DNA of 28,344 nucleotides from a bacterium (GTDB taxonomy: Bacteria > Zhuqueibacterota > Zhuqueibacteria > Oceanimicrobiales > Oceanimicrobiaceae). The notes under the pieces are model-generated. The model ran no database searches, had not been told where the DNA came from, and was given only the letters and a program-made list of their open reading frames with translations. This document shows positions 2,953 to 24,972 of the stretch, in pieces (positions within the stretch are counted from its first letter, which is position 1; each line of letters opens with the position of its first letter). The DNA is taken from positions 1-28,344 of the forward strand of contig JBBIIG010000054.1 of assembly GCA_037446635.1 (NCBI GenBank). The letters are read 5' to 3'. Made by a program: the position numbers and the translations under genes.

Positions 2953-2969
2953 TTTAGCGAAGGCGAAAC

Positions 2970-4163
2970 ATGGCTCACGAGAGTCACATCGATTATGATA
3001 TTCACGGGTTGGTTGGCATTCGGCTGCTGAACGCCCAACCCAGCGACGCCGCGGCGGTGGATCGGCAATTGGGCGCGCTGCGCGCCAATCTGCAGCGCGA
3101 GCCGGACATCGTCATCCGTTTTGAAAAATGGCTGGCCACGCCGCACCTGCGCTTGCTGGGCCTCGATTACGCCGGCTACGATGAAAACGGTTATTACATT
3201 TTGCGCAGCAGCAAGGCGCCGGCAAAAGTGCGCATCCCGTTCGATGAGATTGGCGGGCGCTGTGAGATCGTCTGTGAAAACGGCCTGCGTTCGGTGCCGC
3301 TGCTCATCGCCATCATCAACCTCACGCTGCTGCAAAAAGATTGTGTTCCGTTACATGCGTCGGCGTTCGTTTACAACGGCGTTGGTGTGCTGGTCACCGG
3401 TTGGTCCAAAGGCGGCAAAACCGAAGCGATGCTGGCGTTCGCTCACAACGGCGCCGAATACGTCGGCGACGAGTGGGTGATCCTCGCCGGCGACGGCCAA
3501 ACTATGTACGGGCTGCCGGAGCCGATTACGTTGTGGGATTGGCATCTCGACTATTTGCCCAAGGCCCGCAACCTGGCGCCTAAGAGTAAGCTGCGTTTGT
3601 TTAAAGGCATTCACGCGTTGGTGGGGGTGAATCATTTCCTTCGCAGAAGTTTTTTGAAAAAAATGTTCTTGGCGAAGACTCTCGACGAGAGTATGGCGGC
3701 TTTGAAGCGCCAGTTGCACGTTAATCTTCCGCCGCAGAAACTGTTTGGCGGCAAAGGCGCCCGCAAAGCGAAACCGGAAAAAGTGTTTTTCATCGGCAGC
3801 CACGAGTCGCAGGAGATTGTGGTTGAACGGGGCGACGGCCCGGAAATCGCCGAGCGCATGGCCGCCTCCGTGGAATATGAGCGCACGCCGCTTTTGGAAC
3901 ACTACCTGGCGTTTAAGTTCGCGTTTCCGGAGCGCAGCAACCCCTTCATCGAAACCGCCGCCGAGACGCAATATGAAATTTTGAGCCGGGCGCTCGCCGG
4001 CAAAGAGGCCTACCGGGTGATGCACCCGTACCCGGTGCCGCTGCCCGACCTCTACGCCGCCATGAAGCCCTATTGTGAAAAATCAGCCAGCAGTGTGGAG
4101 CTGAAACCGAAAACCATGCAACCCCAAAGTAAAGCGCTAACCGAGGCGCAAATAGAAGTCTAA
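2970..4163 (+). CDS. HprK-related P-loop kinase, substrate unknown
   Basis: PLHASAF...GVLVTGWSKGGKT followed by YVGDEWVIL matches the HPr-kinase/PEPCK-type His, P-loop and acidic-pair arrangement. Confidence 0.7.
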   Translation: MAHESHIDYDIHGLVGIRLLNAQPSDAAAVDRQLGALRANLQREPDIVIRFEKWLATPHLRLLGLDYAGYDENGYYILRSSKAPAKVRIPFDEIGGRCEIVCENGLRSVPLLIAIINLTLLQKDCVPLHASAFVYNGVGVLVTGWSKGGKTEAMLAFAHNGAEYVGDEWVILAGDGQTMYGLPEPITLWDWHLDYLPKARNLAPKSKLRLFKGIHALVGVNHFLRRSFLKKMFLAKTLDESMAALKRQLHVNLPPQKLFGGKGARKAKPEKVFFIGSHESQEIVVERGDGPEIAERMAASVEYERTPLLEHYLAFKFAFPERSNPFIETAAETQYEILSRALAGKEAYRVMHPYPVPLPDLYAAMKPYCEKSASSVELKPKTMQPQSKALTEAQIEV

Positions 4164-4178: not shown

Positions 4179-5204
4179 ATGGACAAAATGATTATTCGAA
4201 GCAAAGCGCCTTTGCGCATCAGTTTCTCCGGCGGCGGCACGGACATTTCGCCCTATAAAGACGAATACGGCGGCGTGGTGCTGAGCGCCACCATCGACAA
4301 ATACGCCTACGGCTCGCTGCGCCTGAAAGACGAGCGCACTGTCACCGTGAAATCGTTGGACTACGATATCGTCGCCAAATACAACCTCGACGACGATATG
4401 GCCTACAACGGCGAGCTGGATTTGGTGAAGGCCGTCATCAAAAACATGAACAACGGCTTCAAACACGGGATGGAATTTTTCATCCACAGCGACGCGCCGC
4501 CGGGCTCGGGCCTCGGTTCGTCTTCCACGATGGTGGTGGCGCTGATTGGCTTGATCAAACACTTGCAGCGGCTGCCGCTGACCAACTACGAGCTGGCGGA
4601 GCTGGCCTACAAAATCGAGCGCCTGGATTTAGGCATTCAGGGCGGCATGCAGGATCAATATGCCGCGGTGTTTGGCGGCTTTAATTTTATGGAATTCGGA
4701 GCGTCGCGGGTGGTGGTCAATCCCCTGCGCATTCCGAAGGAAGTTATCAACGAGCTGGAGTACAATCTGTTGTTGTGTTACACCGGCAGGACGCGGCTGT
4801 CCGCCAACATTATTACTTCGCAAATCGAGTCCTACAAAAGCAAGGAGCGGACCGTGCTGGAAGCGATGGAGGAGTTGAAAAAGATCACGGTGGAGATGAA
4901 GAATGCGCTGCTGCAGGGGCGGCTCACCGATTTTGGCCGGCTGCTGCACGAGGCCTGGATCAATAAAAAGCAAATGGCGAAACAAATTACCACCTCAACA
5001 ATCGACCAGTTGTATGCGACTGCGCGCGCTAACGGCGCCATCGGCGGGAAGATTCTCGGCGCCGGCGGCGGTGGGTATCTGCTGCTTTTTTGTGAGTTCG
5101 ATAAAAAGCACGTCGTCGCCGAAGAATTGGAAAAAATCGGCGGGCAGATTGTGGAGTTTACATTTGAAATGAACGGTTTGCAAACCTGGGAGGTGCCGTC
5201 TTGA
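4179..5204 (+). CDS. hddA: D-glycero-alpha-D-manno-heptose-7-phosphate kinase (GHMP kinase)
   Basis: KAPLRISFSGGGTD, PPGSGLGSSS, GMQDQY, GGKILGAGGGG. Strong AGGAGG SD upstream. Adjacent to gmhA. Confidence 0.88.
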   Translation: MDKMIIRSKAPLRISFSGGGTDISPYKDEYGGVVLSATIDKYAYGSLRLKDERTVTVKSLDYDIVAKYNLDDDMAYNGELDLVKAVIKNMNNGFKHGMEFFIHSDAPPGSGLGSSSTMVVALIGLIKHLQRLPLTNYELAELAYKIERLDLGIQGGMQDQYAAVFGGFNFMEFGASRVVVNPLRIPKEVINELEYNLLLCYTGRTRLSANIITSQIESYKSKERTVLEAMEELKKITVEMKNALLQGRLTDFGRLLHEAWINKKQMAKQITTSTIDQLYATARANGAIGGKILGAGGGGYLLLFCEFDKKHVVAEELEKIGGQIVEFTFEMNGLQTWEVPS

Positions 5205-5788
5205 ACCAATTCGATAGCGACTTTTCCCCGCGCTTAACGCAAATACTCGAGGAAAGCATCGCGGTTAAAAAACGGGTGGCGGCCGAACACGTTGCGGTTC
5301 TCAATCAAATTGCCCAAACCCTGCGGAAGTGTCTGGCCGAGGGGAATAAGATTTTGCTCTTTGGAAACGGCGGCAGCGCCGCGGATTCCCAGCACATCGC
5401 CGCGGAACTCGTGAGCAAATTCTTTCACAACCGCAAAGCGCTGCCAGCCATCGCCCTCACCACCGACACCTCCATTTTGACCTCCGTGGCCAACGACTAT
5501 AGTTTCGAAGAAGTGTTTGCCCGCCAGATTGAGGCGCTCGGCCATAAAGGCGACGTCGCCATCGGCATCAGCACCAGCGGCAATTCGCCCAATGTTTTGA
5601 AAGCCCTGCGCCTGGCAAAACAGCGAGGGCTGGTTACTATCGGCCTGACCGGCGAGGACGGCGGCAAACTGCCACATGCGGTGGATATTTGTTTTCGCGC
5701 GCCCTCCAAAAGCACGCCGCGCATTCAGGAGGTTCACATCACCATCGCCCATGCCATTTGTGAAATCATTGAAGAGGAGCTTGGATAA
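5201..5788 (+). CDS. gmhA: Phosphoheptose isomerase (SIS domain)
   Basis: GNGGSAADSQHIAAEL, ANDY, STSGNSPN, RIQEVH. TTG start overlaps the hddA stop (TTGA). Confidence 0.95.
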   Translation: MNQFDSDFSPRLTQILEESIAVKKRVAAEHVAVLNQIAQTLRKCLAEGNKILLFGNGGSAADSQHIAAELVSKFFHNRKALPAIALTTDTSILTSVANDYSFEEVFARQIEALGHKGDVAIGISTSGNSPNVLKALRLAKQRGLVTIGLTGEDGGKLPHAVDICFRAPSKSTPRIQEVHITIAHAICEIIEEELG

Positions 5789-6820: not shown

Positions 6821-8056
6821 ATGAAAATTCTTTATATCACGCCTTCATTTCAACACCCCACGGTGCGCGGCCCGCATCGCCATTACTATTTTATTCGCGA
6901 ACTGGCGCAGCGCCACGAAATCACGCTGCTCACTTTGGCTCGGCACCCAATCGGCGACGACGCTTTAACGGAAATGACATCCTATACCCGCGACCTGTTC
7001 GCTTTCGACGTTAACGGCGGCTCGCACTACGACTTCGCAAAGCAGATCGGCAAGCTGCCGGTCATAGGCGGGCCATTGAAAGCGCAAACCATTTTCAGGA
7101 ACGGGCTGCGAGAGATGAAGGCAACCTTTCGCGAGCTGGTGAAAACCCGGCCGTTTGACGTGGTGCTTTTTCACGGCAAATCGGTTTTTCCGGTGATCGA
7201 AGATTACGAGGGTTTGCCGCTGGTGGTGGATTTTTGCGACGCCACCTCGATGCGCCTCCGTACCGAGATGCAGTACGCCCCGCCGCTGCGGCGGCCGTGG
7301 CTGTTCTGGCGCCTGCAACAGGTGCGGCGCACCGAGAGCCGATTGATCAACAAAACATCCTACCTCGCCTTTGTATCTCTGCGCGACCGAACGGCAACCA
7401 ACGGCGACACGCCCAACTCGCGCATCATCCCCATCGGCGTCGATTCGAACTATTGGAAAAGAACCAGCCCGGAGTTTGACCGCAAGCGCTTGATATTTAC
7501 CGGCGTCATGGACTACGGCCCCAATCATGACGCTGCCATTTATTTGATCGATAACGTTTTGCCGTTATTGCGAGATAAAAATCCCCGCCTCGAGCTTTGG
7601 CTGGTGGGGCGAGCGCCGCGCCCGGAATTACAGCAAAAGGCCCGGCAAACCCCGGGCGTAACCGTCACGGGGGCGGTGGATGATTTGCGGCCCTACCTGC
7701 AGCGGGCGGCCCTGTTTGTGGCGCCGATGCGCTACGCTTCTGGTACGCAAAACAAGCTGCTTGAAGCTATGGCTATGGGAGTTCCGGTGGCAACCACCAC
7801 ACTTGCCGCGGGCGGTTTGTACGTGGAAGGTGGGGGCGAGCCGCCGGTGATCGTGGCTGACAATGCAAACCAGTTGGCCGAAAAAATAATCAACATTCTT
7901 GAAAATCAGGAGCTTCATACTCGCCTGGCGAGTCAAGGACGTGCTTACGTGGAAACCCATTTCAACTGGACGCGCAGCGCCGAAACTCTGGAGACCATGT
8001 GCATCGATGCCGCAAGCCAGAAAGCGACAACATCTCCCCGGAGGATGAAATCATGA
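6821..8056 (+). CDS. Glycosyltransferase family 4 (GT-B fold)
   Basis: MKILYITP start, IFTGVMDYGPNHDA, VTGAVDDLRPYL, GTQNKLLEAMAMGVPV, FNW near the C-terminus. Confidence 0.92.
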   Translation: MKILYITPSFQHPTVRGPHRHYYFIRELAQRHEITLLTLARHPIGDDALTEMTSYTRDLFAFDVNGGSHYDFAKQIGKLPVIGGPLKAQTIFRNGLREMKATFRELVKTRPFDVVLFHGKSVFPVIEDYEGLPLVVDFCDATSMRLRTEMQYAPPLRRPWLFWRLQQVRRTESRLINKTSYLAFVSLRDRTATNGDTPNSRIIPIGVDSNYWKRTSPEFDRKRLIFTGVMDYGPNHDAAIYLIDNVLPLLRDKNPRLELWLVGRAPRPELQQKARQTPGVTVTGAVDDLRPYLQRAALFVAPMRYASGTQNKLLEAMAMGVPVATTTLAAGGLYVEGGGEPPVIVADNANQLAEKIINILENQELHTRLASQGRAYVETHFNWTRSAETLETMCIDAASQKATTSPRRMKS

Positions 8057-8880
8057 ACGATATTTTACTGTCAGCTGAAAATGGCGCCGCCGAACATTCC
8101 CACGGAGGGTCGCTAAAAGACAAATTCAACTTGCTTTTGGATGACAGCGCCAAAGCCTGGAACACCTCTCGGAGCATGATCATTTTTCTGTGGCTGCTGC
8201 CGATACTGTTTTGTCTGGCGGGGGTAGTAGCCGCGTTGATGGGAAAAAGCGCTTACAAGGCGTTCACCACCGAAGACGGTATCGCGGAAAACATCCAGGT
8301 GGTGATGTTCGTCGTTGCGTTTGTATTCTCTTTTAATGTGATGCAGAACACCGTCCGCCGCGGCCAATACTTTTTTGCGGCGCTTTACGGAATTTTGTGC
8401 GTTGGGCTTTTTTTCATTATCGGCGAAGAGATTAGCTGGGGTCAGCGCCTCCTCGGCTGGGATACGCCGCAGCACATTAAGGCCATCAACAAACAGGACG
8501 AAACCAACATTCACAATATTTATGTGGTGGGCGAAACCATCAAATGGCTGCATCTGGTGTTTGCGGCCTTCGGAACATTTATGCCGCTGCTGGTGATGCG
8601 CCTGGAGCGATTGCAGCGCTACCGTAAGCAACTCGCCATGTTGGTTCCCCATTATTCGATGATCCCGTTTTTTTTTATACCTTTGCTATGGCGGCTCTTC
8701 CGCAATCTGGTGCCGGTGCCAAAACGGTTTTATTTCGTCGTCTCAGAATACACCGAGGTGATTGAATTGGTGATTGCCAGCGCCATCATGTTGTTTTTGA
8801 TTTTTCAATACCGGCAATTTTCCAGAAAGGATTCCGGTGCTGAACGGACACGTAACAAGAAAGAATCATTTGCCCAATAA
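8053..8880 (+). CDS. Uncharacterised polytopic membrane protein with EEISWGQR and ETNIHN motifs
   Basis: ATGA overlap with the GT4 stop at 8053-8056. About six hydrophobic segments with polar motifs EDG..EN, GEEISWGQR, NKQDETNIHN, SEYTE. Confidence 0.75.
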   Translation: MNDILLSAENGAAEHSHGGSLKDKFNLLLDDSAKAWNTSRSMIIFLWLLPILFCLAGVVAALMGKSAYKAFTTEDGIAENIQVVMFVVAFVFSFNVMQNTVRRGQYFFAALYGILCVGLFFIIGEEISWGQRLLGWDTPQHIKAINKQDETNIHNIYVVGETIKWLHLVFAAFGTFMPLLVMRLERLQRYRKQLAMLVPHYSMIPFFFIPLLWRLFRNLVPVPKRFYFVVSEYTEVIELVIASAIMLFLIFQYRQFSRKDSGAERTRNKKESFAQ

Positions 8881-9111
8881 CTACGACGAGATCGCTGTTC
8901 AAAATTCGCAAGCCAGTGTCGTCGCCGGCGCTGGCCGCCGCGGCTGCAACTGCGTCGAATTCTCACCCGCTACCATGACATTTTGCTGGCCGTCAACCTT
9001 CCAACAAAGTGTTTCCCTCGTTGGCTTTCCGCAAAAGCCTGTTTTTGACCTTAGTTTGACATGGATAGTTAACAATTGAACAACATTGCCTTTCAGCGGA
9101 GGTTTTCTTTC

Positions 9112-11253
9112 GTGAATAAAGAAATTTGGTGCACCTTAGGCCCGGCCTCATTGAATGATCACGTGTTGACTCGGCTGGTGGAGTTGGGAGTCAGTTTATT
9201 TCGACTGAATTTGTCACACACTAAAGTTAGTAAACTTAGAGAAATTCTGGAGTATATTCAGAGTCGAACCAAAGTTCCGGTATGTTTGGACACCGAAGGC
9301 GCGCAAGTTCGAACCGGCGACTTGGCAAAGGGCAAGATCGCGGTTCTGGAGAATAGCACCATTCGGGTACATTACAATCGTGTGCCCGGCGATTCGGGCA
9401 ATTTGAATCTTTACCCCGAGGAGATTGCCCGTCAGTTAATTATTGGGGATTTGCTCAAGATAGACGCCGAAGTGCTGGCGCAGGTGGTGGCGATTGAAAA
9501 CGATTGCGTCGTTTTATGGGTATTGAACGGCGGCGAGATTGGTCAAAACAAAGCCGTGAGCCTGCTGGAGCGCGATCTTTCCCTGCCGGCGGTTACCGAG
9601 AAAGATAAGCAGGCGCTGCGGATTGGCAACGAAATGGGAATTCGGCACGTGGCACTTTCGTTTGCCAACCGCGCCAGCGACGTGGGGGTTGTGCGTGCGC
9701 TGGCAAACAACGGCACTTTAGTGACTTCAAAAATTGAGTGTCTGAGTGGGCTGCGTAATCTTCCAGAAATCGCGGCAGCCTCGGATGCGCTGTTGATCGA
9801 CAGAGGTGATTTATCGCGCCAGGTAAACATCGAGAAAATTCCGGCGGTGCAAAAAGACATCATCCACTACGCCAAAGGAGTAGGCAGAAAAATTTACGTC
9901 GCCACCAACTTGCTCGAATCGATGGTGACGTCGGCCAACCCTACCCGCGCTGAGGTCAACGATATTTATAACACTCTGATGGACGGCGCCGATGGCCTGG
10001 TGCTGGCAGCCGAAAGCGCCATCGGAGCGTTTCCAGTGGCGGCCGCGAATATGGTCAAAAAAATTATTCTTGAATACGAAAACAAGCAAAACTCCTGGCA
10101 TCAAGTTCATTATTCTTCCACAGCCGTCAACTCCCTGGTGGAGCCTTATGGCGGCGCACTGGTGCAGCGCGCCGCGAATATTATCGATCGCCGCGGGCGC
10201 CGCAACTGTCCCACTCTGCAAGTCAAAACCACGGACCTGATGGACTGTGTGCAAATTGCCACCGGCGTTTACTCGCCTCTAACCGGATTCATGGATTCCA
10301 AAGAGCTCGACAGTGTTCTCAACGAGAATCGGCTGCAAAATGGTTTAGCGTGGACCATGCCGATTGTTTTGCAGGTTGCTGAAACATCCCTTTCCGGAAT
10401 TTCCGCCGGCGATCGCATCGCGTTGGCGGACGGCAATGGAAAAATCTACGCCACGGTGGACGTTACTGAGATTTACGGCTTCGATTTTGAAAAACTGGCG
10501 CAGAAATGGTTTGGAACCTCCTCGCTAAAACATCCCGGGGTGAAAAAACTGGCCGAGGGCGGGGACCGCCTGGTCGCGGGCGCAGTCACTTTGGTTGAAC
10601 ACTTCGCCACCCCTTACCGGCAATTTGAGCTCAGCCCTGGCCAAAGCCGCTTGATTTTTGCCCAAAAAGGCTGGAGCAAGGTGGTCGGCTTTCACGCGAA
10701 TAGCGTGCCGCACCGCGCGCACGAATATATGCAGCTCAAAGCATTAGAGGCGGTGCACGCCGACGGCATATTTATTAGCCTGCTCATGGGCCCAAAACGG
10801 CGCGGCGATTTTCAAGCTGGCGCGATTTTAAAAAGCTACCAGCATTTGCTGCAAACTAACATTTACCCTTCCGGAAAATTCGCCTTGGGAGTCTCCCAGC
10901 TCTACGTCCGTCATTGCGGCCCGCGCGAGGCCGTGTTCATGGCGATCTGCGCAAGAAATATGGGCTGCAGCCATCTCGTGATCGGAGAAGATTACTTACA
11001 TAGCGATGGTTTTTATGAACCCGCGCAAATACGAGAAGCATTTGAGCGCATCGGCGACATCGGCTGCACGCCGGTGTTTTTCGACGCCGCCGTCAAGAAT
11101 CCCGCCACCAACGAAACCACGCCCATTCGCGATCAGGTCATTCAATCGGCTTTGGCTAAAAAGGAAAGCCTGCCCGACTGGATGATCCGCGATACCCTGC
11201 AGCAGGTGTTGTTACAAGAAATTTCGGAAAACCGGCAAGTTTTTTATCTCTAA
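9112..11253 (+). CDS. Pyruvate kinase (barrel and lid) fused to an ATP-sulfurylase (Sat)-like domain
   Basis: GTG at 9112 follows GGAGG; the ORF track starts at 9076. PK motifs: CTLGPAS, FRLNLSH, LDTEG, SKIE, RGDL, ATNLLESM, PTRAEVND, DGADGLVL. Sat motifs from about 10135: LVEPYGG, GVYSPLTGFM, WTMPIVL, HPGV, HRAHE, GPREA, RNMGCSH. Confidence 0.9.
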   Translation: MNKEIWCTLGPASLNDHVLTRLVELGVSLFRLNLSHTKVSKLREILEYIQSRTKVPVCLDTEGAQVRTGDLAKGKIAVLENSTIRVHYNRVPGDSGNLNLYPEEIARQLIIGDLLKIDAEVLAQVVAIENDCVVLWVLNGGEIGQNKAVSLLERDLSLPAVTEKDKQALRIGNEMGIRHVALSFANRASDVGVVRALANNGTLVTSKIECLSGLRNLPEIAAASDALLIDRGDLSRQVNIEKIPAVQKDIIHYAKGVGRKIYVATNLLESMVTSANPTRAEVNDIYNTLMDGADGLVLAAESAIGAFPVAAANMVKKIILEYENKQNSWHQVHYSSTAVNSLVEPYGGALVQRAANIIDRRGRRNCPTLQVKTTDLMDCVQIATGVYSPLTGFMDSKELDSVLNENRLQNGLAWTMPIVLQVAETSLSGISAGDRIALADGNGKIYATVDVTEIYGFDFEKLAQKWFGTSSLKHPGVKKLAEGGDRLVAGAVTLVEHFATPYRQFELSPGQSRLIFAQKGWSKVVGFHANSVPHRAHEYMQLKALEAVHADGIFISLLMGPKRRGDFQAGAILKSYQHLLQTNIYPSGKFALGVSQLYVRHCGPREAVFMAICARNMGCSHLVIGEDYLHSDGFYEPAQIREAFERIGDIGCTPVFFDAAVKNPATNETTPIRDQVIQSALAKKESLPDWMIRDTLQQVLLQEISENRQVFYL

Positions 11254-11269
11254 CCCCTCGGAGAAATCT

Positions 11270-12169
11270 GTGATTCAATTTGATCGACCTATCATGATCG
11301 TCTGCACTGGCCGCAGCGGCTCCACCGTCTTTTATCGCGTTATCGCCCGCCACCGCGACGTCGGCTGGCTATCGACGCTTAACCACGCGTTTCCAAGCCA
11401 AACCTGGCTCTCGGTTTTTTCGCGATTGTATCCCATGAAAATGTTTGACGCCATTCGCGATCATCGCCTGTTTCCAAAACCGTTCAGCCCCTACAAATTT
11501 TGGGAACAGTACCTGCCCGGGATCACCCGCCACGATCGGCCGTTATTCCCCGAGGACGTGCCCAGTGAAGCCATTGAGCCGCTGCGCCAGACCGTCGCCA
11601 AAGCGCTCAGGTTACAAAATAAAAAGCGCTTTTTGATGAAGGTGACAGGTTGGGCGCGCATGGCCTATTTTGCCCGCGTTTTTCCCGAATTGCGTTTCAT
11701 TTACATCAAACGGAACCCGCGCGACGTGGTCTCGTCTTGGATTCAAGCCGGTTGGTTGAATGTGACTTCACCGGTGGACAGCGATTCCTGGGAGTGGGGC
11801 AAAGTGCCGGAAGAATACATCCAAGTTTGGAAGGAGATGGGGCGGCGGCCATTTCTCTCGGCGGCCATCAAAACGCAACTGGATATCGACGACATTCGCA
11901 GCAACATGGCTCTGTTTCCGGGTCGCTGTTTCGAGCTTCATTACGAAGACTTCGTGGTCGATCCGGTCGGGCAGTTGCGCCAGACCCTTGACTTTTGCGA
12001 GCTGGAGTGGTACGAGGGTTTCGAGAGGCTCGTCCGGCAAACCAAGATTTACAATTTTGCTGACAAGTGGAAGAAATATTTGACCGAGGAAGAGGGTGAA
12101 GTGTTAGCGGAGTTTTTTGAGCGCATCAACCGCGCGAAGAAACGCCGGCTCGTCGCCGAAACTGTGTGA
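11270..12169 (+). CDS. PAPS-dependent sulfotransferase family protein
   Basis: 5'-PSB-like CTGRSGST, 3'-PB-like IYIKRNPRDVVSS, HYEDFVVDP, late DKWK. GGAGA SD before the GTG. Confidence 0.88.
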   Translation: MIQFDRPIMIVCTGRSGSTVFYRVIARHRDVGWLSTLNHAFPSQTWLSVFSRLYPMKMFDAIRDHRLFPKPFSPYKFWEQYLPGITRHDRPLFPEDVPSEAIEPLRQTVAKALRLQNKKRFLMKVTGWARMAYFARVFPELRFIYIKRNPRDVVSSWIQAGWLNVTSPVDSDSWEWGKVPEEYIQVWKEMGRRPFLSAAIKTQLDIDDIRSNMALFPGRCFELHYEDFVVDPVGQLRQTLDFCELEWYEGFERLVRQTKIYNFADKWKKYLTEEEGEVLAEFFERINRAKKRRLVAETV

Positions 12170-12258: not shown

Positions 12259-13521
12259 GTGAGCACAGCCAACATCACATTGTCTGAAGTGGAATTGACG
12301 CGGTTTTTGTTCGCCATCGCCGCGCTGCTGATTTCCGCGCACACGTTCGGATATGTTTTCAACAAGCTGAAGCTTCCGAAAGTCGTCGGCGAAATTTTCG
12401 GCGGCGTGCTGTTGGGTCCCACGGTTCTGGGCGCCTTTGCGCCAGAACTGTACACCTGGTTATTCAATGCTTTTGAATTCGAGGGCAAATTAATTTCGAT
12501 CGTCTATTGGCTGGGTTTGGTGCTGCTGATGTTCGTTTCCGGTTTTGAGATCCAAATGTCCATGGACCGGGAAGATAAACGAACGGTGGTTGGGCTGCTG
12601 ATCGGTTCCACCCTGCCGTTCTTCGCGGCCTGGCTGGCCCCGCTTTTTTTTGATTTTTCACCCTACCTGGGCGCAAAACAGAATATGCTCGCCCTCCAAA
12701 TTGTCGTCGGCGTGGCGGTGGCGGTCACCTCGATTCCGGTAATCTCAAAAATATTTATTGATTTGAATATCATCAACACGCGCTTTGCTCGCATCGTCTT
12801 GACCACCGCCACCATTCACGATGTTTTGCTGTGGGTGGCGCTGGCCATCGCGACCGGCTTGGTGAGCGCCGGCAGCTTCTCCATTTCAAGCATCATTTCG
12901 ACGGTGATGATTACGTTCACCTTTCTCGGCGTGGCGGTGATGTTCATGCCGCGGCTGATGCTGGCGCTGACCCGCCTGCGCTATAATTTGCTTTTGAAAT
13001 CGTCGCGCTCCGGTTACGTGTTGAGCGTCTGCTTTTTATTTGCCGGCGTCGCGAGTTTGTTGAACGTCAACGTGATCTTTGGCGCCTTTTTGGCCGGGGT
13101 GGTGATCGGCCTCATGCCTTCGCGATTCAGCAAAACCAAAACTCAAATTAAGGAGATTGGTTTGGGATTTTTTATCCCGATTTATTTTGCCATCGTCGGC
13201 CTAAAGCTGGATTTGGTTCATCAACTGGATATCAAATTTCTGCTGTTTTTTTTATTTTTCACGACGTTTTTCCAAACGGTTGGGACGCTGGTCGCTTCAA
13301 AGTTGCTGAAAAAAGATTGGCTCACCAGCTTCAATTTCGCCGTCGCCATGAACACTCGCGGCGGCCCGGGGATTGTGCTGGCAACCATCGCCTTCGATCT
13401 CGGCATCATCAACGAAGCGTTTTTTGTAACGCTGGTGCTGATTGCTATTTTCACTTCCCTGCTGGCCGGCGCCTGGTTTAGATATTTGCTCTCGAGGGGA
13501 TATGAGTTGTTGAGGACGTAG
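12259..13521 (+). CDS. Cation:proton antiporter (CPA2, Na+/H+ exchanger fold) without a TrkA domain
   Basis: About 12-13 TM segments. PKVVGEIFGGVLLGPTVLG, TSIPVISKI, GAFLAG, FFIPIYFAIVGL, MNTRG. Confidence 0.88.
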   Translation: MSTANITLSEVELTRFLFAIAALLISAHTFGYVFNKLKLPKVVGEIFGGVLLGPTVLGAFAPELYTWLFNAFEFEGKLISIVYWLGLVLLMFVSGFEIQMSMDREDKRTVVGLLIGSTLPFFAAWLAPLFFDFSPYLGAKQNMLALQIVVGVAVAVTSIPVISKIFIDLNIINTRFARIVLTTATIHDVLLWVALAIATGLVSAGSFSISSIISTVMITFTFLGVAVMFMPRLMLALTRLRYNLLLKSSRSGYVLSVCFLFAGVASLLNVNVIFGAFLAGVVIGLMPSRFSKTKTQIKEIGLGFFIPIYFAIVGLKLDLVHQLDIKFLLFFLFFTTFFQTVGTLVASKLLKKDWLTSFNFAVAMNTRGGPGIVLATIAFDLGIINEAFFVTLVLIAIFTSLLAGAWFRYLLSRGYELLRT

Positions 13522-13608: not shown

Positions 13609-13654
13609 ATGCAGTGAATGTTTGAATGGCAAGAAAATCAGAAAGTATTCCACA

Positions 13655-14626
13655 ATGAAAAGTTTGACGGCCTACCTGCAGCCGATTCGCCGGCGCATGG
13701 GCGTGCGCTTCGTCATCGACCGCGATGCCGACCATCGCAAGACGGTCTTTCTGGCCGGCACCGGCCGCAGCGGCGGCACCTGGGTAGCCGACATCATTAA
13801 CCAGCATAACGAATATCGCTTCATCTTCGAGCCCTTTCACCCGAAGCAAACCCCGTGGATGAAGCCGTTTGGGGAGCGAAAATATCGGCGGCCCGAAGAT
13901 GACGATCCGCAATTCCTGGCGCTGGCGCGATCGATCATCACCGGGAAAATCCGTCATCCCTGGACCGAGCGCTTCAACCGCCGCTTCGTCGCCCACCAGC
14001 GCCTGATCAAGGAAGATTACGCCAATCTCATGATGAAGTGGCTGCACGTCAACTTTCCGGGGATGCCGCTGATTCTCCTGCTCCGGCACCCGTGCGCGGT
14101 GGCGGTCTCCTTCGTCGCGCACAACTACCGCGGCGCGGTGATGCCGCTCCTCGATCAGGAGAAGCTGGTCGCGGATTTTCTGCACCCGTACGTGGACGAG
14201 ATTCGGCGCGCCCGGGACACCTTCGAGCGCACCGTGTTTCTTTGGTGCGTGGAGACGCTGGTGCCGCTGCGGCAGTGCCGCCCCGAGGAGATGCACGTGG
14301 TGTTTTTCGAGAATTTGGTGCAGCAGCCGGAATCCGAGGTAGGGCGGCTGTTCGCCTATCTCGGCAAGAGCTTGGACGGGTTCGACTTTGAGAGACTCAA
14401 GCTGCCCTCGCTCACGTCGAGAAGAGCGAGCAGTGCGGTTTGGACCGGCGACGATCGCGTGACCAGTTGGAAAAACAAAATAAGCGACGAGCAGCGCCGG
14501 CGAGCGCTCGAAATTCTCCAGTTGTTCGGCCTGGACGGTATTTACACCGACGACCCCATGCCCAGGGTGGAGGGCGCGTTGGAAATCATGACGCGCGGCG
14601 AATGGATTCATAACGAGAGACCATAA
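13655..14626 (+). CDS. PAPS-dependent sulfotransferase family protein
   Basis: LAGTGRSGGTW, FEPF, LLLRHPCAVAVS, FFENLVQQP, SWK. ATG at 13655 chosen; TTG at 13622 is also possible. Confidence 0.85.
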   Translation: MKSLTAYLQPIRRRMGVRFVIDRDADHRKTVFLAGTGRSGGTWVADIINQHNEYRFIFEPFHPKQTPWMKPFGERKYRRPEDDDPQFLALARSIITGKIRHPWTERFNRRFVAHQRLIKEDYANLMMKWLHVNFPGMPLILLLRHPCAVAVSFVAHNYRGAVMPLLDQEKLVADFLHPYVDEIRRARDTFERTVFLWCVETLVPLRQCRPEEMHVVFFENLVQQPESEVGRLFAYLGKSLDGFDFERLKLPSLTSRRASSAVWTGDDRVTSWKNKISDEQRRRALEILQLFGLDGIYTDDPMPRVEGALEIMTRGEWIHNERP

Positions 14627-14644: not shown

Positions 14645-15898
14645 ATGAAAAAAAGACGATTCACAGTTTTGAGTTTAATTTTAATCGTCAGTTTGCCTTT
14701 AGGCCTACAGCTCTTTCGCAAACACCTTAATGTCTCGCTGGTTTTTTACCAACCGGCGGAAATACATTTTCTGGAAACGAGTTCGACGAAAACCGAGCCG
14801 CTGCCGCTTTTGCCCGATAACCAAATCAACAACATCATTTTATTTATCGGCGACGGCATGGGGTTGTCGCATCTCACCGCGGCGCGCGTGCATTTGGTGG
14901 GGGCGGAGGGCCGGCTGAACATCGAACGCCTGCCGGTCACTGGGTTGGTCGCCACCCACGCCATCGATAACTTGATCACCGACTCAGCTGCCAGCGCTAC
15001 CGCCCTGGCCACGGGCATTAAAACCACCAACAAAAGCATCGGCATGGATGCCAGCGGCAGAAGTCATCCCACCATCCTCGAAGCGGCGCGGGATGCTGGT
15101 TTCGCCACCGGCTTGGTAACCACCACCCATCTCACGGACGCCACGCCGGCGGCGTTTGCAGCGCACGTCCCAACCCGCGCTATGAAATCGGAGATCGCTG
15201 TGCAGCTTCTGCATTCGAAGGTGAACGTGCTGCTCGGGGAAGGGGAATATTTTTATCCGCGAACGGACCCCCGCAGCCAGAGGAATGATGACGTCAATCC
15301 CATCGCTATCGCAAAAGAACTGGGATATGCCGTGGTTGACAATCGCGAGGATTTGAAAAAGGTGCGTTCTAATTTCATTTTGGGACTGTTTGAAGATTTG
15401 ACAACCGATAGAAAGAAACCGGGGCTGACCTCGTCATTAAATCCCCCGACGCTGGCGGAATTGACCGCCAAAGCTCTGGAGGTATTAAGCTCAAATGAAA
15501 AAGGTTTTTTTCTGATGGTCGAAGGGGAAGGCGTGGACATGGGCAGTCATGTCAATCGGGTGGATTATTTCATCCATCATCTCCGCGGCTTGGACGAAGC
15601 CGTCAAAGTGGCCATTGATTTTGCGCTGCAAGATGAACACACATTGGTGATGGTCACTGCCGACCACGAAACCGGCGGTTTGAACATCATCGGCGGCGCT
15701 TACCACGACCAGGAGCTGAAACTGAACTGGGATACGGACGATCATACGGGCACGCCGGTGCCGTTGTTCGCGTTTGGGCCCCACGCCGTCAGATTTACCG
15801 GCTTGAAGGACAACACCGAGATTCCAAAAATCATGGCGGAATTGCTGGCACTCGAAACTTTTCGAAATCAACTGAATGCGAACGGAAGCTCTAACTGA
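14645..15898 (+). CDS. phoA: Alkaline phosphatase (PhoA type) with N-terminal signal or anchor
   Basis: MKKRRF plus a hydrophobic stretch. IILFIGDGMG, TDSAASATA (catalytic Ser), DATPAAF, GFFLMVEG..VD..SH, VTADHETGG, DHTG. Confidence 0.9.
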   Translation: MKKRRFTVLSLILIVSLPLGLQLFRKHLNVSLVFYQPAEIHFLETSSTKTEPLPLLPDNQINNIILFIGDGMGLSHLTAARVHLVGAEGRLNIERLPVTGLVATHAIDNLITDSAASATALATGIKTTNKSIGMDASGRSHPTILEAARDAGFATGLVTTTHLTDATPAAFAAHVPTRAMKSEIAVQLLHSKVNVLLGEGEYFYPRTDPRSQRNDDVNPIAIAKELGYAVVDNREDLKKVRSNFILGLFEDLTTDRKKPGLTSSLNPPTLAELTAKALEVLSSNEKGFFLMVEGEGVDMGSHVNRVDYFIHHLRGLDEAVKVAIDFALQDEHTLVMVTADHETGGLNIIGGAYHDQELKLNWDTDDHTGTPVPLFAFGPHAVRFTGLKDNTEIPKIMAELLALETFRNQLNANGSSN

Positions 15899-17258
15899 CA
15901 AAAACCAGATCGACGCGCCCAGCGATTTTGTCGCCAGCGTCTTCGCCGCCCTGGCCGACGACGCCATTTCCTACGTTCTGCTGCGCGGCTACGATGAATT
16001 GCTCACCAGCAGCGGATTTCTTGAAATCGACCTGCTGGTCAAACCCGATCATCTGGATTTGTTGAGAAGAACCGTCGCCGAGTTGTCTTTCGTGGAATGG
16101 CCGGCCTGGGGCCATTGGCCGCACCATTTCTTTCTGGCGTTTGATAGCGAACGCGGGGATTGGATCAAGTTAGACGTGGTGACCGAGCTGATGTATGGCC
16201 GCCCCATCCGCCGGTTTCGAGTGGATTTGGCGGAGGCCTGCCTCCAGCAGCGCCGCAGCGATTGGGTTTACCGGCTGGCGCCGCTCCATGAATTCGCAAC
16301 ATTACTTCTGCATTGCCTTTTAGACAAAGGGCAATTCCGAAAAAACCACCAGGGACGATTGTTGGAACTGCTCGGCTTGATGGAAAGCGAGAACGGTGCA
16401 GTTGGCCCGGTGATTGAAAAATATACCGCGCCGGTTCTTTTCTGGGAAGCGATTCGGCAAGCGGCAGCTCGCGGCGATTGGGATGCGCTGCTGGCAAAAC
16501 GCCAGCAATTGGCTCGGCGGTTTTTCCGGCAACAGCCGCTGGCTTCGCTGTGGCGGATTGTCTGCGCCAGAGTCATGCGCCTGCTGCGCGCGCCGGCGTT
16601 CGCGCTCTTTCGCCGGGGGATATCCGTGGCGCTGTTGGCGCCGGATGGCGCCGGCAAGTCCACCCTCACGATGGCTCTGGCGCAGGATCGAATTTTAAAA
16701 GCCCGCGGTGTTTACATGGGCGGCAACCTGGCAGCCAACGCCTTCACTTTGCCCACCACACGATTTTTACACCAACGGCTCCAAGCGAAAAATGGCATGA
16801 AATCCAAAGCCAACAAGATTGTCCAGGGGCTAAATTTTTGCAGCAGATTAGTGGAACAGTGGCTGCGCGCGGCCATCGCCCACTTTCATTTGGGGCGCGG
16901 ACGATTTGTTGTATTTGATCGATACATATTTGATTCCTGGGTGAACCCCAAACCGCGCACCCTGTGGAAACGCGCCCGGCGGATTCTGTTCGAGGCCGTC
17001 TTGCCGGCGCCGGATTTGGTGATCCTGCTCGATGCGCCGGGCGAGGTTTTGTTCGCGCGCAAAGGAGAGCACACGCCGGAATGGCTCGAAGAACAACGCC
17101 GGCGTTATTTACGGCTGCGGACGCGCCTGCCGAATTTGCGCGTCATCGACGCCGCGCTGCCGGCGGAGATGGTGCGCCGCCAGGCCATCGCGATGATTTG
17201 GAAACAGTACCAACTTAAGCATAATTTGAAAAATGGAAATCGAGACGCCAGATATTGA
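15876..17258 (+). CDS. Nucleotidyltransferase-like N-domain fused to a thymidylate-kinase-like P-loop domain
   Basis: YVLLRGY...LEIDLLV...KLDV (Pol-beta-like acidic triad), then APDGAGKST, YMG, FDRY, PAPDLVILLDAPGEVLFARKGE. Confidence 0.75.
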   Translation: MRTEALTDKNQIDAPSDFVASVFAALADDAISYVLLRGYDELLTSSGFLEIDLLVKPDHLDLLRRTVAELSFVEWPAWGHWPHHFFLAFDSERGDWIKLDVVTELMYGRPIRRFRVDLAEACLQQRRSDWVYRLAPLHEFATLLLHCLLDKGQFRKNHQGRLLELLGLMESENGAVGPVIEKYTAPVLFWEAIRQAAARGDWDALLAKRQQLARRFFRQQPLASLWRIVCARVMRLLRAPAFALFRRGISVALLAPDGAGKSTLTMALAQDRILKARGVYMGGNLAANAFTLPTTRFLHQRLQAKNGMKSKANKIVQGLNFCSRLVEQWLRAAIAHFHLGRGRFVVFDRYIFDSWVNPKPRTLWKRARRILFEAVLPAPDLVILLDAPGEVLFARKGEHTPEWLEEQRRRYLRLRTRLPNLRVIDAALPAEMVRRQAIAMIWKQYQLKHNLKNGNRDARY

Positions 17259-18810
17259 TAAACCCGTAAAACCCCGCAAGGTTAAACACGATACCACCAA
17301 CAAGCAAATTCGCGGCTCCAGTTTGCTGCTGTTTGGCCGGCTGTTGTCAACCGGTATCAACTTCGCTTCACAAGTTTTAATTGTTCGAAGTTTAAGCAAA
17401 GGCGATTTTGGCGCATTCGCTTACGGTTTGGCCATCGTGGCGTTCTTTCAGGGCCTCACCGGCCTTGGACTGAAGCGCGGCATCACCCGCTTTCTGCCCA
17501 TCTACCACGAGCGCGAGGAGTATTCAAAGATCACCGGCACACTGCTGCTGGTGGTCGCCACTTTGGTTCTGATTTCCTCGATCATCATTCTCGCGGTTCA
17601 TCTTTTTCCCGAGCAGGTAGCGCGGTTGGTGAAGGACAAGGATCAGCCGGTGGAATTGCTGCTGATTCTGATTTTTCTGGTTCCCGTGGAATCATTCGAC
17701 ACGCTGTTGGTGTCCTTATTTGCCTGCTTCACCAGCCCGCGCGCCATCTTTGCCCGCAAGTACATCATGGCGCCCGGCTTTCGGCTGGCGGCCGTGCTGC
17801 TGCTGGTGTTTTTTAACGCTCGCGCCACGTTTCTGGCCTACGGCTATCTCATTTCCGGCGCGCTGGGCATTTTGATTTTTATGGGCATGTTTATACATCT
17901 ACTGCATCGCCAGGGCGTGCTGCAGAAGTTGAGCCTCAGCCAGGTCAACGTGCCGGCAAAAGAACTGTTTGCGTTTGCCTTGCCGCTGCTCAGCACCGAT
18001 CTGGTGACCATCGTGATGCATCAACTGGATACCATGTTATTGGGGTACTTTCATGACGCCGCGCAGGTGGGGGCGTTCCGTGCGATTTTGCCGGCCGCGC
18101 ATTTCAATAAAATTCCCATGGAGAGTTTTGCCATTCTGTTTACGCCGCTCGCGGCCCGTCTCTTTGCACGGGGAGACTTTCTCGGCATCAATGAACTCTA
18201 CTGGCGGACGGCCGTGTGGATGTCCATTGTCTCGTTTCCAATTTTTGCCCTCACTTTTTCCATCGCCAAGCCCATTACCGTGCTCCTCTACGGCGCCCGG
18301 TACGAAAGCTCGTGGATTTACCTCAACCTGCTTTCTTTCGGTTATTATTTTAACCTGGTCACCGGCTTCAACGGCTTGACCCTCAAGGTGCTGGGGAAGG
18401 TTCGCTACGTTGTTATCATCAATTTTGTGGCGATGATCGCCAACCTCATTTTTGCCGTGTTGCTGATTCCCAAATACGGCGCTTTGGGCGCCGCCATCAG
18501 CACCACGCTGGCGATGGTTTTGTATAATCTCCTCAAACAGGCTGGCCTGCGTTTGGGCGCGAGCTTGAGCATTTTTGAGTGGAAATATCTGTCGTTTTAT
18601 TTGATTCTCGCCGGCGCCGCCGCCGGCTTGTTCTTAGTGCAGTTCTTAATTCAAAACGTCGTGGTTTTGGTGGTCTTGACCGGCATCGTCACGGTTTTGA
18701 TTTTTCTTTTTTCAAAAGAAAGATTACGGGTGGAAGAAACGTTTCCCGAATTGCTCAAGATTCCAATGATGCGATTTATTCTCAATTTGCAACTTCCGAA
18801 AAAGAAATAA
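17233..18810 (+). CDS. wzx: Polysaccharide flippase (Wzx, MOP superfamily)
   Basis: About 14 TM segments. RSLSKGDFG, DTMLLGYF...VGAF, LLIPKYGALGAAIST. Confidence 0.9.
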   Translation: MEIETPDIDKPVKPRKVKHDTTNKQIRGSSLLLFGRLLSTGINFASQVLIVRSLSKGDFGAFAYGLAIVAFFQGLTGLGLKRGITRFLPIYHEREEYSKITGTLLLVVATLVLISSIIILAVHLFPEQVARLVKDKDQPVELLLILIFLVPVESFDTLLVSLFACFTSPRAIFARKYIMAPGFRLAAVLLLVFFNARATFLAYGYLISGALGILIFMGMFIHLLHRQGVLQKLSLSQVNVPAKELFAFALPLLSTDLVTIVMHQLDTMLLGYFHDAAQVGAFRAILPAAHFNKIPMESFAILFTPLAARLFARGDFLGINELYWRTAVWMSIVSFPIFALTFSIAKPITVLLYGARYESSWIYLNLLSFGYYFNLVTGFNGLTLKVLGKVRYVVIINFVAMIANLIFAVLLIPKYGALGAAISTTLAMVLYNLLKQAGLRLGASLSIFEWKYLSFYLILAGAAAGLFLVQFLIQNVVVLVVLTGIVTVLIFLFSKERLRVEETFPELLKIPMMRFILNLQLPKKK

Positions 18811-20475
18811 ATGCTGGAAACAACCTTAAACACAGAATTTCTGCCCGGCACCAATGTCAAAGGCGATATGGTATCCGCCGACTGGCGATTTTTGCTGCCC
18901 AGCCTCGAAGTGGATAGCGTGGTCTGTTTCGGATTTCCGCCGCTTTCCACCATTCAGGTGTTGGCCAGAATGTGCCGAAAAGTGACGATCGTTTCGGACC
19001 ACAGTTTGAAGCGCGATACCCTCGACAACCAACTCCACGCCCGCAACATCAAAAACGTGGTCATGATTGCGATGAGCGAGTTGACAGCCATTGCCGACCA
19101 AAGCGTTGACCTGGTTCTGGCGATGCGCAAATCGATCATCAGTAAAGTTTTGGGGAACGCGGCCGCGCTGGCGCAGCTTTCAAGAATCGTCAAAAATCAG
19201 GGCGTGATTTTTTTCCGTTTGAGCGGCCTCTGGGATCGCCTGCTGCGCCGCAAAGCGCACAACGCTTTTTTGAAGGACGGTTTCTGCCAGCCGCAGGAAT
19301 TCTGGCTGGCGCCGGCGTTGGGCCGAATGCGCATGGCCGTGCCGCTGGCCGATCGCGATTTGCGGCCCTATTTTATCAACAAAATTCTCGCGGGGCAAAC
19401 GCTCAAAAACCGGCTGCTGAAATCTTACGGCAAAATTTTGGGATCTTATCCGCGCGCGCTGGTGAGCCGCTATTCCGGCGAATTGGCAACCCGCCCGCCG
19501 GAGTACCTGCTAACTTTGGGAAAGACCGCGGGGCTGGATTTATCCGCCTATCGCTGGGGCGTCGCGGCCGGCGGCCGCTACAACGCCAAAAAAATTGTGT
19601 TCTATTTGTTTAATGAAAACGTGGAAAATCCGGAGATCGTCATCAAACTAACTCGCAGCCCGGAATTCAACCCCCGCCTGGAAAACGAGTACCGCGCGCT
19701 GTCGCTGCTGCATGAAAAAAAATTGGCGGAAGACGGCTCGTTTCCGGAGCCGCTATTTCAAGGATATCACGCCGGGCTGGTGGTAGTGGGCCAACGCGTC
19801 ATCGACGGCGAGCTCTTCAGCAAGCGCACCAGCGGCGCGCCCAATTGCCGCTATTTGCGGGCCACGGTGGATTGGCTGCAAACTCTGGCGCTTAATTCCA
19901 AACGCAGCGATTCCGTCAGCTCAGTGGAGGTGGCGGCGACGTTGAAAATTCTGCTTAACCGCTTGTGTGAGATTTATAAAGTGGCGCCGCAGCATTCCGA
20001 ATTTCTGGCACAGCAGATCGACGCCCTCGGTCGCTCACAGCGCAAATTTCCGCTGGTGTTTCAGCACGGCGATGCCGGCAGTTGGAATGTTCTCATCACC
20101 CGCGACGAGCGAGTCGCTTACGTGGATTGGGAAGCCGCCGAGTCGAGCGGCCTGCCGCTGTGGGATCTGTTTTATTTTCTGAAAACGTACGGCACGATCA
20201 TGTTTCGTCTCGCCGGTGTTCATGATTCTTTACAAGCGTTCACCAATAATTTTTTGAACGCTACCGCCATCAAGTCGCTGCTGCTGGATTCCACCCGACG
20301 CTACTGCGATGCCGTGGGCGTCGAAAAAGAATGGGTCGAGCCGCTGTTTTACACTTGCTGGGTGCACCGCGCGCTGAAGGAAGCCACGCGCTTGCCCCGC
20401 GAAAATCTCGACTCCGGGCATTACATCAACTTGCTGCGGCTGGCCATCGAACAGCGCGACCGGTTAGGCATCTGA
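18811..20475 (+). CDS. Degenerate methyltransferase-like N-domain fused to an APH/choline-kinase-like phosphotransferase
   Basis: N-part: DWRFLLP, SVDLV, RIVKNQG. C-part: VIKL...LENEY, QHGDAGSWNVL, VDWE, PLWDL. Confidence 0.78.
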   Translation: MLETTLNTEFLPGTNVKGDMVSADWRFLLPSLEVDSVVCFGFPPLSTIQVLARMCRKVTIVSDHSLKRDTLDNQLHARNIKNVVMIAMSELTAIADQSVDLVLAMRKSIISKVLGNAAALAQLSRIVKNQGVIFFRLSGLWDRLLRRKAHNAFLKDGFCQPQEFWLAPALGRMRMAVPLADRDLRPYFINKILAGQTLKNRLLKSYGKILGSYPRALVSRYSGELATRPPEYLLTLGKTAGLDLSAYRWGVAAGGRYNAKKIVFYLFNENVENPEIVIKLTRSPEFNPRLENEYRALSLLHEKKLAEDGSFPEPLFQGYHAGLVVVGQRVIDGELFSKRTSGAPNCRYLRATVDWLQTLALNSKRSDSVSSVEVAATLKILLNRLCEIYKVAPQHSEFLAQQIDALGRSQRKFPLVFQHGDAGSWNVLITRDERVAYVDWEAAESSGLPLWDLFYFLKTYGTIMFRLAGVHDSLQAFTNNFLNATAIKSLLLDSTRRYCDAVGVEKEWVEPLFYTCWVHRALKEATRLPRENLDSGHYINLLRLAIEQRDRLGI

Positions 20476-20481
20476 TGATGA

Positions 20482-20663
20482 AAATTAAACACCGAAGGTC
20501 ACCGAAAGCCACGGAACGATTGTAAAACTTGACCGCAAAGAACGCAAAGTTGGTGCAGAGATCGCTAATAAATGAACAATTTTTTTTCCTGGGTCCTTTG
20601 CGTTTTCTTAGCGAACATTGCGGCGGCTTCGGTGTTTTTTCGGTGTGCTCAGGTGTTAAATTT
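20482..20663. repeat. Nested imperfect inverted repeat built from short periodic units
   Basis: Outer arms: caccgaa, caccgaa, cacggaa versus ttcggtg, ttcggtg, tcaggtg, with termini matching 11/12. Inner arms: accgcaaagaacgcaaag versus ctttgcg...ttgcgg. Confidence 0.75.
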
Positions 20664-20676
20664 GTATTAGTTTGCG

Positions 20677-21564: not shown

Positions 21565-21585
21565 TTAGTTTAGTGAGATTAAATC

Positions 21586-23184: not shown

Positions 23185-23188
23185 AAAA

Positions 23189-23821: not shown

Positions 23822-23822
23822 A

Positions 23823-24857: not shown

Positions 24858-24972
24858 TGTAACCCGTGTTCTACGCGGGGAGCGCCGCTTCCCCGAAATC
24901 GCCGCAATGGAAGTAATTATAAACATTGGTCGGAATTGATTTGAGTTTTGATCTTTGTTATTTGGATTAAAA

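Follow-up and report, generated by a model that had tools for sequence, protein, structure and literature searches.

What does a pyruvate kinase (PK)-like barrel do when it shares a polypeptide with an ATP sulfurylase (Sat) domain? The question is raised by a gene in the 28,344-nucleotide stretch of DNA analysed here as a whole, hereafter the window (contig JBBIIG010000054.1 of assembly GCA_037446635.1, from a bacterium of the phylum Zhuqueibacterota), in which a single open frame on the forward strand, 9112-11253, starts with GTG and encodes 713 amino acids. The initial annotation, made from the letters of the window alone, had described an uninterrupted PK-Sat frame and had taken it for a module driven by phosphoenolpyruvate (PEP) that powers its own sulfurylase. 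Pfam analysis bore out the frame; the module was not borne out, as residues of the Sat active site are lost and a sat-cysC pair and a pyk gene lie elsewhere in the genome, on C7 and C2, respectively. As its motifs are not those of the Sat family, we do not count the gene among that family, and we class it as a fusion of the 3'-phosphoadenosine 5'-phosphosulfate (PAPS) synthase type built on an uncharacterised PK clade. As an answer to the question we propose, with about an even chance of being right, that the barrel would be an unregulated PEP:ADP kinase serving the PAPS supply for glycan sulfation. The features of the gene are as follows.

9098-9102, forward strand: GGAGG resembling a Shine-Dalgarno sequence, 9 nt upstream of the GTG start (seen in the sequence)
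9112-11253, forward strand: fusion gene, 713 amino acids, with PK-like barrel and lid, PUA-like domain and decayed ATP-sulfurylase domain (open frame, Pfam, homologues)
9121-10086, forward strand: PK-like domains A and B with the catalytic residues retained, allosteric C domain absent (Pfam, alignment)
9799-9801, forward strand: Asp230, where the PK signature MVARGDLGVE has Ala (family alignment)
10141-10599, forward strand: PUA_2 domain, the Sat N-terminal domain (Pfam residues 344-496, E 3.7e-42)
10621-11217, forward strand: ATP-sulfurylase catalytic fold, predicted inactive (Pfam residues 504-702, E 3.7e-42)
10690-10722, forward strand: degenerate sulfate/phosphate loop FHANSVPHRAH, TRN lost and HxxH kept (sequence, alignment)
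10984-10998, forward strand: degenerate ribose/sulfate loop GEDYL in place of GRDHA (sequence, alignment)

The fusion is a genuine gene

Three Pfam families were reported for the window protein. The PK match covered residues 4-311 (E 1.5e-65), and the barrel and lid scored 221.9 bits on PF00224 against a cut-off of 30, while PK_C was absent from the three families, in agreement with the earlier claim that the allosteric C domain is missing. The PUA_2 and ATP-sulfurylase matches reached 144 bits each, compared with 324-332 bits for stand-alone Sats on PF01747, and all NCBIfam PK and Sat models fell under their cut-offs for this protein (TIGR01064, 265.9 bits versus 306.4).

The PK-Sat fusion is a real gene and no assembly artefact. 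In a homologue search of 5.8 billion proteins the best 120 matches comprised the window protein and 119 others of 50-92% identity, and the PK, PUA_2 and ATP-sulfurylase trio was carried by all 120 matches listed. Two complete plasmid or chromid records, from Ensifer adhaerens and Sinorhizobium chiapasense, matched over 99% of the query length, and Methyloversatilis discipulorum has a RefSeq copy of the fusion (WP_029143666.1), its P0112 being a member with an intact Sat. The initial annotation had named relatives of the same architecture and coverage of the junction at about 10080-10140 as checks; the former are the 119 others among the matches listed, and the latter is bridged by a 6489-nt contig of run X3, from another study, which spans 9781-11600 unbroken (contigs, not raw reads). 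A chimeric assembly at the junction was ruled out by these relatives, the two complete records and the X3 contig. A housekeeping PK or Sat identity for the gene was likewise ruled out, since C2 and C7 carry the ordinary copies.

The PK-like half keeps the catalytic residues and changes the signature

The window protein contains R31, N33, S35, H36, D60, R67, K147, S183, K207, E209, R231, G232, D233, T265, R279 and E301, and the motifs RLNLSH, KIE, RGD, AT and TRAE noted previously were all present. The catalytic constellation of Pseudomonas aeruginosa PykF consists of Arg35, Lys217, Glu219, Gly242, Asp243 and Thr275 (PMC8637920); in an alignment to that enzyme R31, K207, E209, G232, D233 and T265 coincide with it, and these six residues were unsubstituted, gaps aside, in 208 family rows (177 fused and 31 barrel-only). 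In its A and B domains and catalytic constellation the protein resembles Mycobacterium tuberculosis 5WRP, P. aeruginosa PykF 7OO1 and Escherichia coli PykF; it differs from them in lacking the C domain and in reading DRGDLSR for ARGDLGV, ATNL for ATQM, LAAE for LSGE or LSAE, and DTEGAQ at the K+ signature. The PK active-site signature MVARGDLGVE (PMC8637920) was not found, LIDRGDLSRQ standing in its place, and the position of Asp230 was Asp in 208/208 family rows versus Ala in 13/13 ordinary PKs.

The PK half is under purifying selection, with nonsynonymous (dN) and synonymous (dS) divergences of 0.05 and 0.98, respectively, relative to L031. We class it only provisionally as a pyruvate kinase, its putative PEP:ADP activity being deduced from sequence. 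The ESM Atlas returned PK clusters only.

The sulfurylase half is predicted to be dead in the window protein and is repeatedly lost in the family

A. vinosum Sat binds adenosine 5'-phosphosulfate (APS) through Gln199, Arg201 and Ala299 at the sulfate, through Thr200 and Asn202 at the phosphate, and through Gly295, Arg296 and His298 at the ribose (PMC3779200). The window Sat domain reads FHANSVPHRAH where QTRNPxHxxH is expected and GEDYL for GRDHA, so that its QXRN loop is HANS, as opposed to the HTRN type of intact relatives, and it has no equivalents of Thr200, Arg201, Asn202, Arg296, His298 and Ala299. The HXXH motif is retained as H534-R-A-H537, and the SG-x-x-x-R stretch near the C-terminus, present in P0029 and in the C7 Sat, is lost. 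With sulfate-, phosphate- and ribose-binding residues gone, the window sulfurylase is predicted to be dead. The initial annotation was thus correct in placing a Sat fold where the C domain of PK would be, and had overlooked the degeneracy of its active site (FHANSVPHRAH, GEDYL).

A fused Sat was scored as dead upon loss of the Arg, the Asn, the second His or the GRDH His; seven truncated rows were dropped, and the set contains duplicates and is biased to near kin. By this rule 44 of the 172 scorable Sat halves were dead and 128 had intact motifs, the window protein falling in a dead-Sat clade of 37 rows; among representatives at 50% identity, 17/66 were dead. The dead window Sat is still under purifying selection (dN 0.10, dS 1.11 versus L031), and the domain is not free to drift. 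The ratio of Sat dN to PK-half dN was 1.99 among seven dead copies and 0.96 among 14 intact ones.

In a FastTree phylogeny of the PK domain (92 rows), the PK-like family formed one clade apart from ordinary PKs with a support of 0.996. Forms with a dead, eroded or absent Sat made up 25 maximal clades under at least 13 well-supported parents that contain intact members, possibly truncated representatives having been left out and some 'dead' calls perhaps being sequence errors. A single clade of 20 lost forms was rejected by the approximately unbiased test (p-AU 4e-7; 44 rows, picked after the first tree). Half-eroded Sat remnants were seen in P0427 and P0510. The barrel also occurs alone, as 120/120 relatives listed for one barrel-only protein were of 316-359 amino acids with PK only, and the DRGD signature was present in 117 of them. 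The Sat half hence decays or vanishes repeatedly, and the PK-like half is the part always kept.

A separate Sat and an APS kinase were found in each of the six dead-Sat genomes examined: in the window genome an intact sat followed by cysC is found on C7, and the other five have one or two ordinary Sats and APS kinase each. Such a spare housekeeping Sat would allow the fused one to decay.

Within the phylum of the window, 9/167 genomes carry the fusion, one carrier being the unpublished G162, which was used only in this tally and in that of pyrophosphatases below. Profile searches of other phyla gave a match in 1/401 genomes around G167 and 0/401 around G168, and no whole genome with a barrel-only copy came out of them; a single-sequence scan of GTDB contigs gave stand-alone Sats only (14 loci), and phage records contained no match covering 80% of the query. 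Database labels of family members read simply 'pyruvate kinase' or 'ATP sulfurylase'.

Several related forms were observed in passing. Two IMG/VR viral contigs (L111, L112) carry a barrel-only gene, adjoined by a sulfotransferase in L112. Among P0368, P0503 and P0506, the barrel is fused with CBS domains or stands behind a type I phosphodiesterase domain, and P0503 reads RFD in place of RGD and also carries a Sat. The window's phylum contains a second PK-like family of the barrel-only form (L131-L135, in G040, G026, G035, G025 and G030, respectively), which reads WLCRGDL and has Gly for the catalytic Thr in 5/6 short copies fetched; it may represent a pseudo-enzyme or a different enzyme. Finally, in L019, L021, L023 and L024 (G014, G009, G022 and G004) an ordinary Sat ends open frames of 824-835 amino acids or more, lengths that imply a long N-terminal fusion partner.

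The barrel is associated with APS kinase and sulfotransferases

Neighbours were counted with our own profiles, seeded from Pfam-confirmed neighbours, and many loci were short. A sulfotransferase or APS kinase was present in 45 of 59 fused loci (sulfotransferase 37, APS kinase 18), which supports the link to glycan sulfation drawn in the initial annotation. Among the 39 barrel-only loci (six of them viral contigs, and one a fusion truncated at the end of its contig), a sulfotransferase was present in 16, an APS kinase in 19, of which 17 had it within 300 nt, and a separate Sat in one; Pfam revealed no CysD, CysN or Sat among 63 neighbours picked from such loci. Pfam found no APS kinase domain on the window protein chain itself; it occurs in the triple PK-Sat-APS kinase fusions P0452, P0464, P0471, L061 and L077. 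Direct PK-APS kinase fusions are represented by P0397 and P0465, and L140 encodes sulfotransferase, PK and Sat in one frame. The barrel is thus tied less closely to Sat than to APS kinase and the sulfotransferases, and APS kinase is the likelier partner because barrel-only forms adjoin it and it occurs directly fused to PK. PK and APS kinase distances were correlated over 29 pairs, kin that are not independent (r 0.35, 0/2000 permutations).

A small HxGH cytidylyltransferase-like protein adjoins the barrel-only gene in four loci (L085:9036-9386, L096, L111 and L112), and was encoded near APS kinase in 17/58 viral loci (L167-L230) and fused to it in four. This protein may be a minimal sulfurylase.

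A model of ADP recycling for APS kinase, and the evidence against it

According to the reading we favour, the barrel without its allosteric domain would use PEP to convert the ADP from APS kinase to ATP, and the low ADP and high ATP maintained beside APS kinase would sustain the supply of PAPS to the neighbouring sulfotransferases. Substitutions private to the family around helix α6' might stand in for the missing C domain by locking the active state, and the dead Sat fold might be kept as a scaffold; in the window genome, APS and PAPS would be supplied in trans from C7. Removal of ADP may also help APS kinase to escape the enzyme-ADP-APS complex, a dead end in which it stalls (PMC3734648).

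The coupling assumed in the initial annotation is a different one. There the kinase was to drive the sulfurylase; Sat, however, releases pyrophosphate (PPi) and not ADP, and therefore a PK cannot pull the Sat equilibrium. Coupling to its own sulfurylase is further undercut by the persistence of the PK half with a dead or absent Sat, adjoining or fused to APS kinase. The pulls on the Sat equilibrium that have been described are PPi cleavage, APS kinase and reduction (PMC3734648).

A number of observations weigh against ADP recycling. With an ordinary pyk present on C2 of the genome, a second, freely diffusing PK seems superfluous, although its conservation is strong; the window itself is without APS kinase, the only one of the genome being on C7. 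Sulfotransferases are no less frequent than APS kinases at fused loci (37/59 versus 18/59), and no sulfotransferase was detected by our own profile within 15 kb in the Ensifer and Sinorhizobium loci. PK acts on free and not on enzyme-bound ADP, and any relief of the dead-end complex would be indirect. Further near-invariant changes with respect to ordinary PKs are N266 for Gln and S235/R236 for Gly-Val or Ala-Val, and in most family rows V297 replaces Met and A299 replaces Ser; we take this Met and the Ala replaced by Asp230 to line the pyruvate site. The only direct data on these Ala, Met and Ser positions that our literature search gave place Ser362 near the site of the ATP γ-phosphate (PMC3467265). 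At the K+ signature, E62 and Q65 correspond to neither of the monovalent-cation signatures, that with Glu117 and that with Lys117 (PMC8835810), and Gln65 was present in 208/208 family rows; this is not fatal, because some crenarchaeal PKs carry Gln or Ser at the corresponding position (PMC4374775).

The partner enzymes are altered at sulfate contacts as well, which plain ADP recycling does not predict. The equivalent of Gln199 is His in 128/128 intact fused Sats and remains Gln in 39/39 scorable stand-alone Sats, and the equivalent of Ala299 is Thr or Ser in 109/128 of the former. For the APS kinases, 29 adjacent or fused ones were scored as linked and three more distant ones were set aside. 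Arg497, which binds sulfate in M. tuberculosis CysC (PMC4373884), has no equivalent in 22/29 linked enzymes, and in the remaining seven the neighbouring Asn and the ISP motif are changed. The unlinked enzymes, from loci of which none has the barrel, keep the Arg in 70/71.

Alternative explanations

Since comparable sites are changed in three enzymes, a changed substrate is a serious rival, which we consider possible and distinctly less probable than an even chance. The barrel would then be a phosphotransferase of a new kind that draws on PEP or ATP and serves some acceptor outside the pyruvate/ADP pair; this could be a small anion or a 3'-phosphorylated nucleotide, among them 3'-phosphoadenosine 5'-phosphate (PAP) and 3'-phospho-ADP. 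The Sat-like and APS kinase-like partners would make a PAPS analogue with phosphate or another non-sulfate group, and sulfotransferase-fold proteins would pass that group to glycan. This is in keeping with the changes at the anion or substrate sites of PK, Sat and APS kinase alike, namely the private invariants of the PK pocket (Asp230, N266, V297, A299, S235/R236, E62/Q65), the His for Gln199 in every intact fused Sat and the lack of the Arg in 22/29 linked versus 1/71 unlinked APS kinases, as well as with conservation of the barrel where no active Sat or adjacent APS kinase accompanies it, as in the window, a locus rich in kinases and phosphatases. These changes are, however, few events, as Gln-to-His probably arose once in an ancestor and all but one of the 22 Arg-less kinases (21) fall into a single clade (support 0.96). 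His and Thr are still able to bind sulfate, and Arg483 is kept in 32/32 APS kinases. Moreover, we could devise no single alternative pathway that accounts at once for the retention of Sat by most members and for its recurrent loss, for which a spare ordinary Sat provides a simple explanation, and the neighbours include sulfotransferase, TauE and CysQ-like genes (the CysQ label comes from reading the sequence).

In a related and equally tentative proposal, the locus would encode a rewired PAPS-like cassette, in which the PEP-driven barrel charges a 3'-phospho-adenosine carrier with a non-sulfate group or makes an activated anion. If so, the sulfurylase would be dispensable, and sulfotransferase-fold proteins would put this group on surface glycans in many phyla, abundant marine bacteria among them.

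It is improbable that the barrel serves as a PPi sink, passing the PEP phosphoryl group to PPi or hydrolysing PPi and so pulling the sulfurylase as in the diatom Sat-pyrophosphatase. Sat-pyrophosphatase and triple fusions of stramenopiles and haptophytes (PMC2275785, PMC3734648) offer a parallel to PK-Sat-APS kinase, and a membrane H+-pyrophosphatase was found in 5/5 carrier genomes tested; but when Sat and APS kinase part, the barrel goes with APS kinase, the nucleotide-binding PK residues are kept, and the carriers are not short of soluble pyrophosphatase (3/9 carriers, the window genome included, versus 48/167 genomes in the phylum).

That both halves are active in the window protein, PEP-made ATP being handed to the fused sulfurylase for APS formation, is very unlikely: the fusion is old and conserved, Sat motifs are intact in most scorable relatives, HxxH survives and the Sat half is under the purifying selection described above, but TRN, GRDHA and the C-terminal SG-x-x-x-R are lost from this copy, PK removes no product of Sat, and a spare Sat is available on C7.

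Relation to known systems

Among Sat-type enzymes the best solved match was that of Methanothermococcus thermolithotrophicus (PDB 8A8D; E 4.5e-63 over residues 343-658). The window protein shares with it and with A. vinosum Sat the PUA and catalytic folds and the HxxH motif, and differs in standing behind a PK barrel, in the His that the family has for Gln199, and in the loss of TRN and GRDHA from the window copy. Known fusion partners of Sat are APS kinase, pyrophosphatase and APS reductase, and triple fusions occur (PMC2275785, PMC3734648). As in these proteins and the bifunctional PAPS synthases, Sat is joined to a helper enzyme of sulfate activation; here the helper is a PK-like barrel, and it outlives Sat. 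The term 'pyruvate kinase' does not occur in the main text of either article. In an Entamoeba histolytica APS kinase, a dead sulfurylase-like domain is kept on the active kinase and modulates it (bioRxiv 10.64898/2026.04.02.716029). This offers a precedent for the predicted dead Sat fold kept on the window protein, the partner being PK-like in the window fusion and APS kinase in Entamoeba. The initial annotation knew of no characterised example, and our literature search likewise found no description of a PK-Sat fusion, although subscription papers and supplementary annotation tables, which lay outside that search, could mention one.

The usual view of pyruvate kinase is that of a single reaction and a single, nearly invariant pocket. 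A large separate clade departs from that: it has dropped the regulatory domain, has changed a signature residue and travels with sulfate-activation and sulfotransferase genes, in fusions with Sat, APS kinase or both. Reconstructions of metabolism would be led astray by the plain database labels, in glycolysis as well as in sulfur metabolism. If the barrel is an ADP recycler, it would be the natural counterpart of the PK/PEP nucleotide regeneration used in vitro, and useful for making PAPS; if its substrate has changed, new group-transfer chemistry on bacterial glycans would be involved. The cultured hosts M. discipulorum, E. adhaerens and S. chiapasense make the question directly testable.

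Organization of the window locus

Downstream of the fusion gene the following features were recognized.

11270-12169, forward strand: sulfotransferase 1, 16 nt downstream of the fusion (Pfam)
12259-13521, forward strand: CPA2 cation:proton antiporter (Pfam)
13622-14626, forward strand: sulfotransferase 2 (Pfam)
17233-23184, forward strand: polysaccharide flippase (17233-18810) and, at 21586-23184, a gene of the Wzy/O-antigen-ligase family, which together mark a Wzx/Wzy glycan locus (Pfam)

Both sulfotransferases that had been said to follow the fusion are present, with the antiporter gene between them. Partners 64-74% identical to sulfotransferase 1 adjoin the fusion in G013, G160, G164, G165 and G166. 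Sulfotransferase 2 is succeeded by an alkaline phosphatase gene and then by the flippase, the Wzy-family gene, kinases and a deacetylase (Pfam). The sulfotransferases of the window probably sulfate the polysaccharide of the locus.

CPA2 antiporters accompany the fusion in 11/59 fused loci, including distant lineages, and TauE-family transporters were present in 11/98 loci. Directly upstream, 7999-8880 encodes a membrane protein with zero Pfam matches, homologues of which occur in the same loci of G013, G160, G164 and G166. No sigma-70 promoter-like site was seen upstream of the fusion gene; a terminator-like hairpin at 9023-9039 is within chance (1 versus 0.4 ± 0.6), and an Rfam search of the window gave zero matches. 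The glycan locus (31-4163 and 14645-25668) is unusually rich in phospho-enzymes, with a CotH kinase, an HPr-kinase-like protein, two thymidylate-kinase-like proteins, two APH-type kinases, the alkaline phosphatase and a metallophosphoesterase of the twin-arginine translocation (TAT) type. An HddA-like heptose kinase and a GmhA isomerase are encoded at 4179-5788, and no heptose phosphatase or nucleotidyltransferase was found among the 22 window proteins scanned.

In other loci, pyruvate phosphate dikinase (PPDK)-like, peptidase C26 and nucleotidyltransferase genes lie near the cassette (L036, L052, L092), a set that presumably belongs to a phosphoramidate-type pathway, and in L110 a PEP mutase gene (7169-8008) is located directly upstream of it.

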